Shown piece after piece: positions 11,113 to 11,402 of a stretch of DNA of 14,169 nt; position 1 is the stretch's first letter; each line of letters begins with the position of its first letter. This DNA comes from a virus (Duplodnaviria > Heunggongvirae > Uroviricota > Caudoviricetes). The stretch lies in IMG/VR virus record IMGVR_UViG_2698536549_000025, positions 1 through 14,169 of that record; one strand, 5' to 3'. The notes beneath the pieces are model-generated. The model saw nothing but the letters and a program-made list of their open reading frames with translations. It had not been told where the DNA came from and did not search any database. Both the position numbers and the translations under genes were made by a program.

Positions 11113-11278
11113 GCGGGAACAAAACCGCCTTATCCGTGGACTTATAAGGCAGCGTGACGCATGGAAGACACAGGAAACAGGGCATAAAGATAAAGCGTCA
11201 GGACGCGCAGAACGCATCACAGCGAAGCGATTAACCGACCGTGACCGCGAGGTTATGGAATGTTTCCGCAATCGCTGA
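11105..11278 (+). CDS. Small basic ORF between HNH and terS (speculative)
   Basis: 57 aa, Arg/Lys-rich, overlaps the HNH stop; no RBS evaluated, no motif recognised. Confidence 0.3.
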   Translation: MNEREQNRLIRGLIRQRDAWKTQETGHKDKASGRAERITAKRLTDRDREVMECFRNR

Positions 11279-11402
11279 TGAGGCTGTATGACGGGGTGGG
11301 GGGGCGTTTTCAGGACAAACCCGACCCCGCCGGGCACCGAACGCCTCCTCAAATTTTTATGCACGGGAATTTTTTGAAAAATAATCTGGCGAAAAAATAA
11401 GC
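11279..11402. other. Candidate cos / packaging-recognition region between HNH and terS
   Basis: GC-rich structured segment with a G7 run (11298-11304) and an imperfect hairpin (CGGGGT 11292-11297 / ACCCCG 11324-11329), followed by AT-rich sequence up to the terS start. Positional expectation only. Confidence 0.3.

Follow-up and report, generated by a model that had tools for sequence, protein, structure and literature searches.

Phage-inducible chromosomal islands of the capsid-forming type (cf-PICIs), defined in published work with EcCIEDL933 as the prototype, are recently described and widespread satellites that make their own capsids, package only their own DNA and take their tails from helper phages. 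Packaging of cf-PICI DNA requires the island's own hnh, terS and terL genes: mutation of each gene of the packaging module of EcCIEDL933 abolished or severely reduced its transfer, an effect not seen with mutants of the helper phage, and the DNA of the Klebsiella cf-PICI KpCIDSM30104 was reported to form concatemers through cohesive ends (cos). Although cos sites are stated for these elements, neither the position nor the sequence of cos was found for any cf-PICI in the literature searched. The helper phages of EcCIEDL933 include HK106 and HK446, and in the related phage HK97 a structure of the small terminase on DNA places TerS on positions +15 to +29 of the genome, next to a cohesive end with a 10-nt 3' overhang. 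Here we analyzed a DNA stretch of 14,169 nucleotides (IMG/VR virus record IMGVR_UViG_2698536549_000025, positions 1 to 14,169; hereafter the window), which is identified by its Pfam matches, and by how RefSeq annotates a closely related island, as an EcCIEDL933-like cf-PICI of Escherichia coli. The closely related island is a RefSeq-annotated relative that is 100% identical to the window over 10600-11800. A 91-bp non-coding module at 11294-11384 is very probably the cos site of this island, of the HK97 type, that is, HNH-dependent and with a 3' overhang. A location between hnh and terS was to be expected; what is new is the placement of the site to within a few bases.

A conserved module between hnh and terS

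The preliminary description of this DNA had proposed a candidate cos site in the 290-bp interval 11113-11402, between an HNH gene and terS. The flanking genes are indeed those (PF01844 at 10672-11112 and PF05119 at 11403-11759), and the features of this part of the island are the following:

10672-11112, + strand: hnh, HNH endonuclease, the packaging-associated counterpart of HK97 gp74 (PF01844; phrog_144, E = 8e-45)
11096/11105-11278, + strand: gene of a small basic protein (WP_000174068.1 in the related island; phrog_3173, E = 7.5e-37)
11294-11319: block A of the putative cos site, with the G-run GGGGTGGGGGGG, TTTT and then CAGGACAAA, located towards hnh at about 29-54 bp from the predicted cut
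11320-11332: spacer of variable sequence and fixed length, containing the 3' arm of the hairpin proposed earlier
11333-11347: block B1 of the putative cos site, with GGC-ACC and a C-rich decamer
11348-11384: block B2 of the putative cos site, with CTCAAATTTTTATGCACGGGAATTTTTTGAAAAATAA and two phased A/T tracts
11403-11759, + strand: terS, small terminase of the P27 family (Terminase_4; PF05119, E = 1.3e-23; phrog_83)
11743-13404, + strand: terL, HK97-type large terminase (PF03354 and PF20441)

The interval contains the whole module, but most of it is coding: as the small open reading frame (ORF) is a real gene, around 60% of 11113-11402 belongs to it and the true intergenic gap is reduced to 11279-11402 (124 bp).

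The regions upstream of terS were collected from species-representative genomes, metagenomes, viral contigs and E. coli genomes, giving 152 unique sequences that were reduced to 39 representatives less than 90% identical to each other, from Enterobacterales and Pasteurellaceae, for an anchored alignment. Blocks A and B were present in the 39 representatives, with the consensus GGGGTGGGGGGAGTTTTCAGGACAAA for block A and GGCACCGCCCGCCCCCTCAAATTTTTACGCACGGTGATTTTTTTGAAAATAA for block B (11333-11384), and the ACC at 11336-11338, AAATTTTT and TTTT were invariant. The mean column conservation was 0.88 in block B and 0.80 in block A, against 0.52 in the spacer and 0.47-0.52 in the flanks; within block B2 it was 0.93 over +1 to +14 and 0.85 over +15 to +29, counting from the predicted cut. 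With values of 0.87, 0.89 and 0.60 for the three codon positions of terS, the module is conserved to a degree comparable to the first two codon positions of its neighbor, and this across both Enterobacterales and Pasteurellaceae. Judged from the alignment, the module is under strong purifying selection. Its motif is found once in the window, where 0.01 matches are expected.

The internal geometry of the module is rigid. A distance of 13 nt from ACC to TCAAA is kept in 142 of 147 sequences, and in 122 of 126 the G-block precedes the invariant ACC by 31-32 nt, whereas the distance from the module to the ATG of terS ranges from 40 to 238 nt across the relatives. This combination of rigid internal spacing and variable distance to the gene is that of an autonomous DNA module, and not of the context of a ribosome binding site or start codon. 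The exact length of the G-run differs even among nearly identical islands (longest run from 4 to 11 G, mostly 5 or 6), so that displacing block A from block B by 1-2 bp is apparently tolerated.

The cues that had called attention to the interval deserve separate consideration. A GC-rich segment does exist (72% GC over 11290-11350), although its embedding in AT-rich DNA holds for its 3' side (27% GC over 11351-11402) and not for its 5' side, which is coding and has 52% GC. The G7 run is present at 11298-11304, but such runs are not beyond chance in the window (4 found against 2.2 expected, with 47 of 200 shuffled sequences reaching 4), and alone it was rejected as a signal; it is informative only through its conservation. 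As to the imperfect hairpin proposed at 11290-11335, there is an inverted repeat, CGGGGTGGGG/CCCGACCCCG at 11292-11301/11320-11329, with 90% complementarity. However, the DNA fold of the 124-nt gap was no more stable than those of shuffled sequences (z = -0.68), the pairing (9 of 10 positions in the window) drops to a mean of 45% in 38 non-redundant relatives, and no match was found in Rfam, so that a structural signal was discarded. The interpretation given in the preliminary description is supported, but on other grounds than those it offered: the hairpin and the small ORF were not the informative features.

Several irregular copies of the region were also noticed. In Shigella flexneri SFBU1023, a 98-bp deletion between CCCCGCC direct repeats (equivalent to 11325-11429 of the window) takes out the predicted cut, block B and the start codon of terS, and because of these losses the copy is decayed and no longer capable of self-packaging. 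The sequence break at TTTTCAGGAC in S. flexneri, considered as possible evidence of a cut, corresponds to this direct-repeat deletion and was rejected. In the single genome of Pasteurellaceae bacterium Macca (LVZB01), at least nine terS copies of the P27 family found in this island are present, at least five of them differing in their upstream DNA; in one copy the cos motif is located around 215 nt from the ATG, with extra DNA containing inverted repeats in between. The only other long G-run in the window is a G9 at 3241-3249, in the region of regulators and small ORFs.

Ends of packaged DNA in related elements

Sequences assembled from virions offer a view of the ends of cf-PICI DNA. The record of vB_KppS-Ant (LR881103) is a 16.5-kb linear sequence, based on virion DNA from a Nextera XT library and assembled with SPAdes; it ends at ...GGGGTGGGGGAGGTTTTCAGGAC, and its start is 22 nt ahead of the terS ATG. 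At both ends it is 100% identical to the island integrated in Klebsiella pneumoniae ATCC 13883, the same type strain as DSM 30104. Compared with this integrated island, exactly 69 nt are absent from the record, GAACACGAGGGCGCCAGGCACCACCCGCCCCCTCAAATTTTTTCGCACGGTGATTTTTTTGAAAATAAA, equivalent to 11317-11385 of the window, and the predicted cut position falls within them. In a second, independent case, the unrelated record PQ569648 (Klebsiella phage P12620-1), a cf-PICI segment runs from codon 2 of terS to the end of the record, 5 nt before the stop codon of the small ORF, leaving around 136 nt missing, centred on the cos module. The predicted cut is near the middle of both gaps.

When linear molecules are sequenced from transposase libraries, some tens of bases are typically missing at either physical end. 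With a cut close to the ACC, the missing bases amount to 21-31 nt at one end and 38-48 nt at the other in vB_KppS-Ant, and to around 73 and 63 nt in P12620-1. From a circularly permuted genome, an assembly free of such a gap would be expected. Judging by these assemblies, the packaged DNA of two related Klebsiella cf-PICIs would have unique ends at the module, which the assembly ends bracket.

Other sequence ends were discarded as termini. Those of public viral and metagenome contigs mostly belong to ordinary metagenome contigs or to predicted prophages; of the full-range viral and metagenome matches, none ends inside the module, the nearest starting around 5 nt before the G-run and 2 nt before the terS ATG. 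The GenBank starts of BiPBO1 and AbIPP1 were also rejected, as both records were re-oriented to the ATG of terS. A DNA search of phage records with 11096-11480 returned only one 1.6-kb cf-PICI fragment.

Some of these records are labeled in a misleading way. LR881103 goes under "Escherichia phage", and in its paper it figures as a filamentous ssDNA prophage, more than 99% identical to a stretch of K. pneumoniae DSM 30104; it is actually the cf-PICI of this strain. Its 2.3-kb gene after terL is annotated as "tail length tape measure protein", odd for an element said to be without tail genes. The 106.5-kb "complete genome" PQ569648 is a chimera of a phage of around 90.6 kb and a cf-PICI segment of around 15.9 kb. 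OR845787 ("Escherichia phage ECO95 1-6-1" NODE_531), a 1.6-kb low-coverage contig from a lysate on E. coli O157:H7 ATCC 43895, comes not from the phage but from a cf-PICI of the Klebsiella-like lineage, of which it holds hnh, the small ORF, cos and terS.

Comparison with HK97 and other systems, and alternative readings

In HK97, and putatively in the island, cos stands shortly upstream of terS and follows the HNH gene, and both encode homologous packaging enzymes: HNH is 39% identical to HK97 gp74 (E = 4e-18), TerL is 27% identical to HK97 gp2 (E = 2e-46), and the HK97 TerL structure 6Z6D is the only relative of the island TerL in the Protein Data Bank (PDB; E = 6e-42). The physical ends of HK97 in GenBank are ...GGGCAGGGGGGGGGATCAAATCTTCAAAACCTTTGCCCCAAATGACCGCCGCCAAA and GTTTGAATTTAACGCTAACCCGATTTTTTTAG..., and the junction between them consists of GGGCAGGGGGGGGG, 29 nt, and then ACCGCCGCCAAA/GTTTGAATTTAACGCTAACCCGATTTTTTT, where the slash marks the ends. 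The numbering of the HK97 TerS paper coincides with that of GenBank, and its landmarks are T16, a C:G pair at 21 and A:T pairs at 24-29 (a C:G pair followed by an A-tract). When the ACC of cf-PICIs was aligned on the ACC of HK97, the landmarks compared as follows:

G-run end: -43 in HK97 (a G9 run); -44 in the window
ACC: -12 to -10 in HK97; -12 to -10 in the window
Decamer before the cut: GC-rich in HK97 (3' overhang); C-rich in the window
ACGC: +12 to +15 in HK97; +12 to +15 in the window, as ATGC, with ACGC in the cf-PICI consensus
T-tract: +24 to +30 in HK97; +23 to +28 in the window
terS ATG: +50 in HK97; +56 in the window

In addition, GATTTTTTT is found at about +22 in both, and a conserved C/G-plus-T-tract of the module occupies the place that corresponds to the TerS-bound +15 to +29 of HK97. 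HK97 has 49 nt between the cut and the terS ATG and the Bacillus phage phi105 has 53-59 nt, against a predicted 55 nt in the island. When the cf-PICI profile was searched with nhmmer against the whole HK97 genome, the top match was the cos junction, a weak one (5.3 bits, E = 0.26 genome-wide). A scan of HK97 with a position-specific scoring matrix (PSSM) in three blocks, with a flexibility of +/-3 nt, ranked the junction 1st on the + strand and 2nd of 80,076 positions overall, 4.8 standard deviations above the mean, in such a register that +1 of HK97 corresponds to 11348 of the window; the individual blocks were in the top 0.06%, 0.6% and 0.03% genome-wide.

There are also clear differences. 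The overhang is CGCCGCCAAA in HK97, against the predicted CGAACGCCTC in the island; HNH and cos are separated by 319 nt with no annotated small ORF in HK97 and by 235 nt including the small ORF in the island; and the packaged unit is 39.7 kb in a T=7 capsid in the phage and around 15 kb in a T=4 capsid in the satellite. The small terminases belong to families unrelated in sequence, that of gp1 in HK97 and P27/Terminase_4 in the island: BLASTP between the two gave E = 2.5 with no Pfam family in common, no sequence relative of the island TerS was found in the PDB, and its single-sequence AlphaFold model (predicted local distance difference test score, pLDDT, of 55) was too poor for a fold comparison with HK97 TerS. 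The cos region of HK97 is 97% identical in HK106 and 94% in HK446; from this comparison, helpers and satellite have cos sites, putative in the satellite, of the same layout and different sequence.

The best match to the module outside cf-PICIs, a significant and clearly homologous one, was found in the Acinetobacter phage AbIPP1 (nhmmer E = 7e-5), where the region upstream of terS reads GGGGGAGGGTGGGTTTTGAC, 23 nt, and then GACCGCCCCC...ACATTTTTACGAGCG. Its gene order is HNH, small ORF, motif and terS, its TerS is the closest among phages (38% identity) and its G-run stands at the same place as in the island and HK97. It differs in being a 33-kb phage, and its record is re-oriented to begin at the ATG of terS. 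In phi105 the order is HNH, small ORF, cos and terS, its TerL is 35% identical, and the annotated 7-nt cohesive end GCGCTCC directly follows an ACC and aligns in register; after the overhang there is a C-rich stretch and then ATTTT, with the terS ATG 53 nt past the overhang. Its differences are a C-run upstream instead of the G-run and an overhang of 7 nt instead of the 10 nt of HK97, and its profile match is very weak (E = 0.89). Other satellites are also packaged from cos, such as P4, SaPIbov5 and the Rpp-type E. coli PICIs, but they use the cos of the helper or re-target the helper TerS, whereas hnh, terS and terL are all encoded by the island itself, and its putative cos is not a helper sequence.

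The layout in common with HK97, phi105 and AbIPP1, the conservation and rigid spacing of the module, the virion-assembly ends and the published cf-PICI data are four independent lines of support for the claim that cos lies between hnh and terS. By homology with the two phages whose ends are experimentally defined, the top strand would be nicked between 11347 and 11348 and the bottom strand around 11337 and 11338, each within approximately 2 nt, leaving a predicted 3' overhang of 7-10 nt that would be 11338-11347 (CGAACGCCTC) in the register of HK97 and 11339-11345 (GAACGCC) in that of phi105. The TerS-binding, cosB-like side would be approximately 11348-11384 and would be packaged first.

Several points weigh against these assignments. 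The similarity to the cos of HK97 is weak by nhmmer (5.3 bits, E = 0.26 genome-wide), and the PSSM scores are negative in absolute terms, with one unrelated position of HK97 scoring higher. As the TerS families differ, the transfer of the +15 to +29 binding site from HK97 gp1 is by analogy, and the overhang itself differs in length between the two reference phages (10 nt in HK97, 7 nt in phi105). Moreover, the evidence from virion ends comes from Klebsiella elements, around 76-80% identical in the region, and not from this E. coli lineage, and as transposase libraries miss the true ends these assemblies bracket the cut only to 69 nt.

The same data bear on where within the module the cut would be. 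A staggered cut in the spacer (approximately 11318-11330), at the centre of an inverted symmetry between G-run and C-run similar to the cosN of lambda, could be argued from TGGGGGGGCGTT and AACGCCTCCTCA, an inverted repeat at 11297-11308 and 11340-11351 with its centre near 11324, and from the end of the vB_KppS-Ant contig at the homolog of 11316, on the edge of the spacer. We consider it unlikely: across the 38 relatives the complementarity of G-run and C-run is no better than in slid controls, the defined ends of HK97 and phi105 lie at or just after the ACC and not between G-run and ACC, and a nuclease site would hardly be expected in the least conserved segment (0.52). It would also require that the Tn5 library reached to 2-13 nt from one end and 57-68 nt from the other, whereas with a cut close to the ACC the shortfalls are more balanced in both assemblies.

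If the module were instead an element controlling terS and terL, in the form of an internal late promoter, an operator or a structure in the 5' untranslated region, the packaging site would be elsewhere, for example within terS. A regulatory role is frequent for conserved intergenic DNA ahead of a gene, and this module stands directly upstream of terS and is AT-rich beside the gene. Nevertheless, no sigma-70-like promoter was found on the + strand and no terminator-like site in the intergenic gap, there was no Rfam match at E <= 1, and the fold is neither stable nor conserved. The ATG lies at anything from 40 to 238 nt although the internal spacing is rigid; the linear virion assemblies break precisely at the module, and in HK97 and phi105 the same layout is found where the genome physically ends, in such a way that a control function as the explanation of the module is quite improbable. 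Headful (pac) packaging, the module being the decayed relic of an ancestral cos, has its precedent in the many PICIs and Staphylococcus aureus pathogenicity islands (SaPIs) that package by pac with their own TerS, but here we regard it as extremely improbable. The island encodes an HNH protein together with an HK97-type TerL, cohesive-end concatemers were reported for a cf-PICI, and permuted genomes would assemble as circles and not as linear contigs lacking one specific 69-nt piece. The strong purifying selection on the module does not fit with a relic either, and the 98-bp deletion of Shigella shows what its loss looks like.

With the module as an HK97-type cos site, the steps of packaging would be the following, each of them proposed by homology. 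After induction the island would replicate into concatemers, and its P27-family TerS would bind the A/T-tract block at around 11348-11384, just upstream of its own gene. This would bring TerL and the HNH nuclease onto the invariant ACC and the C-rich decamer. The strands would be nicked 7-10 nt apart, producing a 3' cohesive end near CGAACGCCTC, and packaging would proceed from the terS side round the unit of around 15 kb into the island's own T=4 capsid until the next cos, with the G-run block at 11294-11319 entering last.

Block A is a candidate for a termination or nuclease-docking subsite. As a tentative and rather doubtful generalization, HK97-type cos sites may be three-part, with a G-run block on the hnh side around 45-55 bp before the cut that is kept at an equal distance in HK97-like phages, AbIPP1 and cf-PICIs and that could be a cosQ-like termination signal or a docking subsite for HNH and TerL; no mention of such a block was found in the HK97 cos and TerS papers examined. 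Satellite and helper would then share this block and discriminate only through the TerS-side block (+1 to +37) and the overhang, and such discrimination would be the molecular basis of the mutually exclusive packaging reported for cf-PICIs and their helpers. The placement of cos raises the questions of how the island and HK97-like helpers such as HK106 and HK446, with the same cos layout, avoid cross-packaging, which subsite is read by the P27-family TerS, and what the role of the conserved G-run block is. On the practical side, a cassette with the 91 bp should suffice to load foreign DNA into cf-PICI capsids, and the module would serve as a compact marker for packaging sites of the cf-PICI type in genomes.

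The small gene and the rest of the island

The small basic ORF at 11105-11278 had been considered of uncertain status. It exists and its product is basic (isoelectric point of 10.7), and it is a real gene, annotated as coding in RefSeq in the closely related island and matching phrog_3173. The product would have 60 amino acids from 11096 or 57 from the ATG at 11105; since the phrog_3173 match spans residues 4-60, the ATG at 11105 is as plausible as the RefSeq start at 11096. Full-length homologs, down to around 39% identity, were found in 19 of 38 non-redundant lineages, while the gene is absent from the others, including all Pasteurellaceae. The cos module is kept whether the gene is present or not, and the small ORF is an accessory gene, separate from the cos DNA. 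An ORF also stands between the HNH gene and cos in phi105, and between the HNH gene and the motif in AbIPP1. In the EcCIEDL933 paper, mutation of a "hypothetical gene 1792" severely reduced transfer; this gene could be the counterpart either of the small ORF or of the ORF after terL at 13418-13699, which in the window matches phrog_1561.

The window has the content of cf-PICIs of 10-18 kb: an integrase, genes for regulation and replication and a module from capsid to terL, with no tail or lysis genes annotated. Besides the genes listed above, it contains:

1-1230: integrase
From int to the helicase gene: regulators and small ORFs
3926-5323: RepA-family helicase
7062-8219: major capsid protein
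8259-8831: prohead protease
8833-10044: portal
Ending at 10672: head closure and connector

Among complete E. coli genomes none is identical to the window, the best reaching 94% coverage with 97.7% identity, and the islands of O157:H7 cover 90% of it with 94.5% identity. In the closely related RefSeq-annotated relative, the island is flanked by roxA and phoQ.

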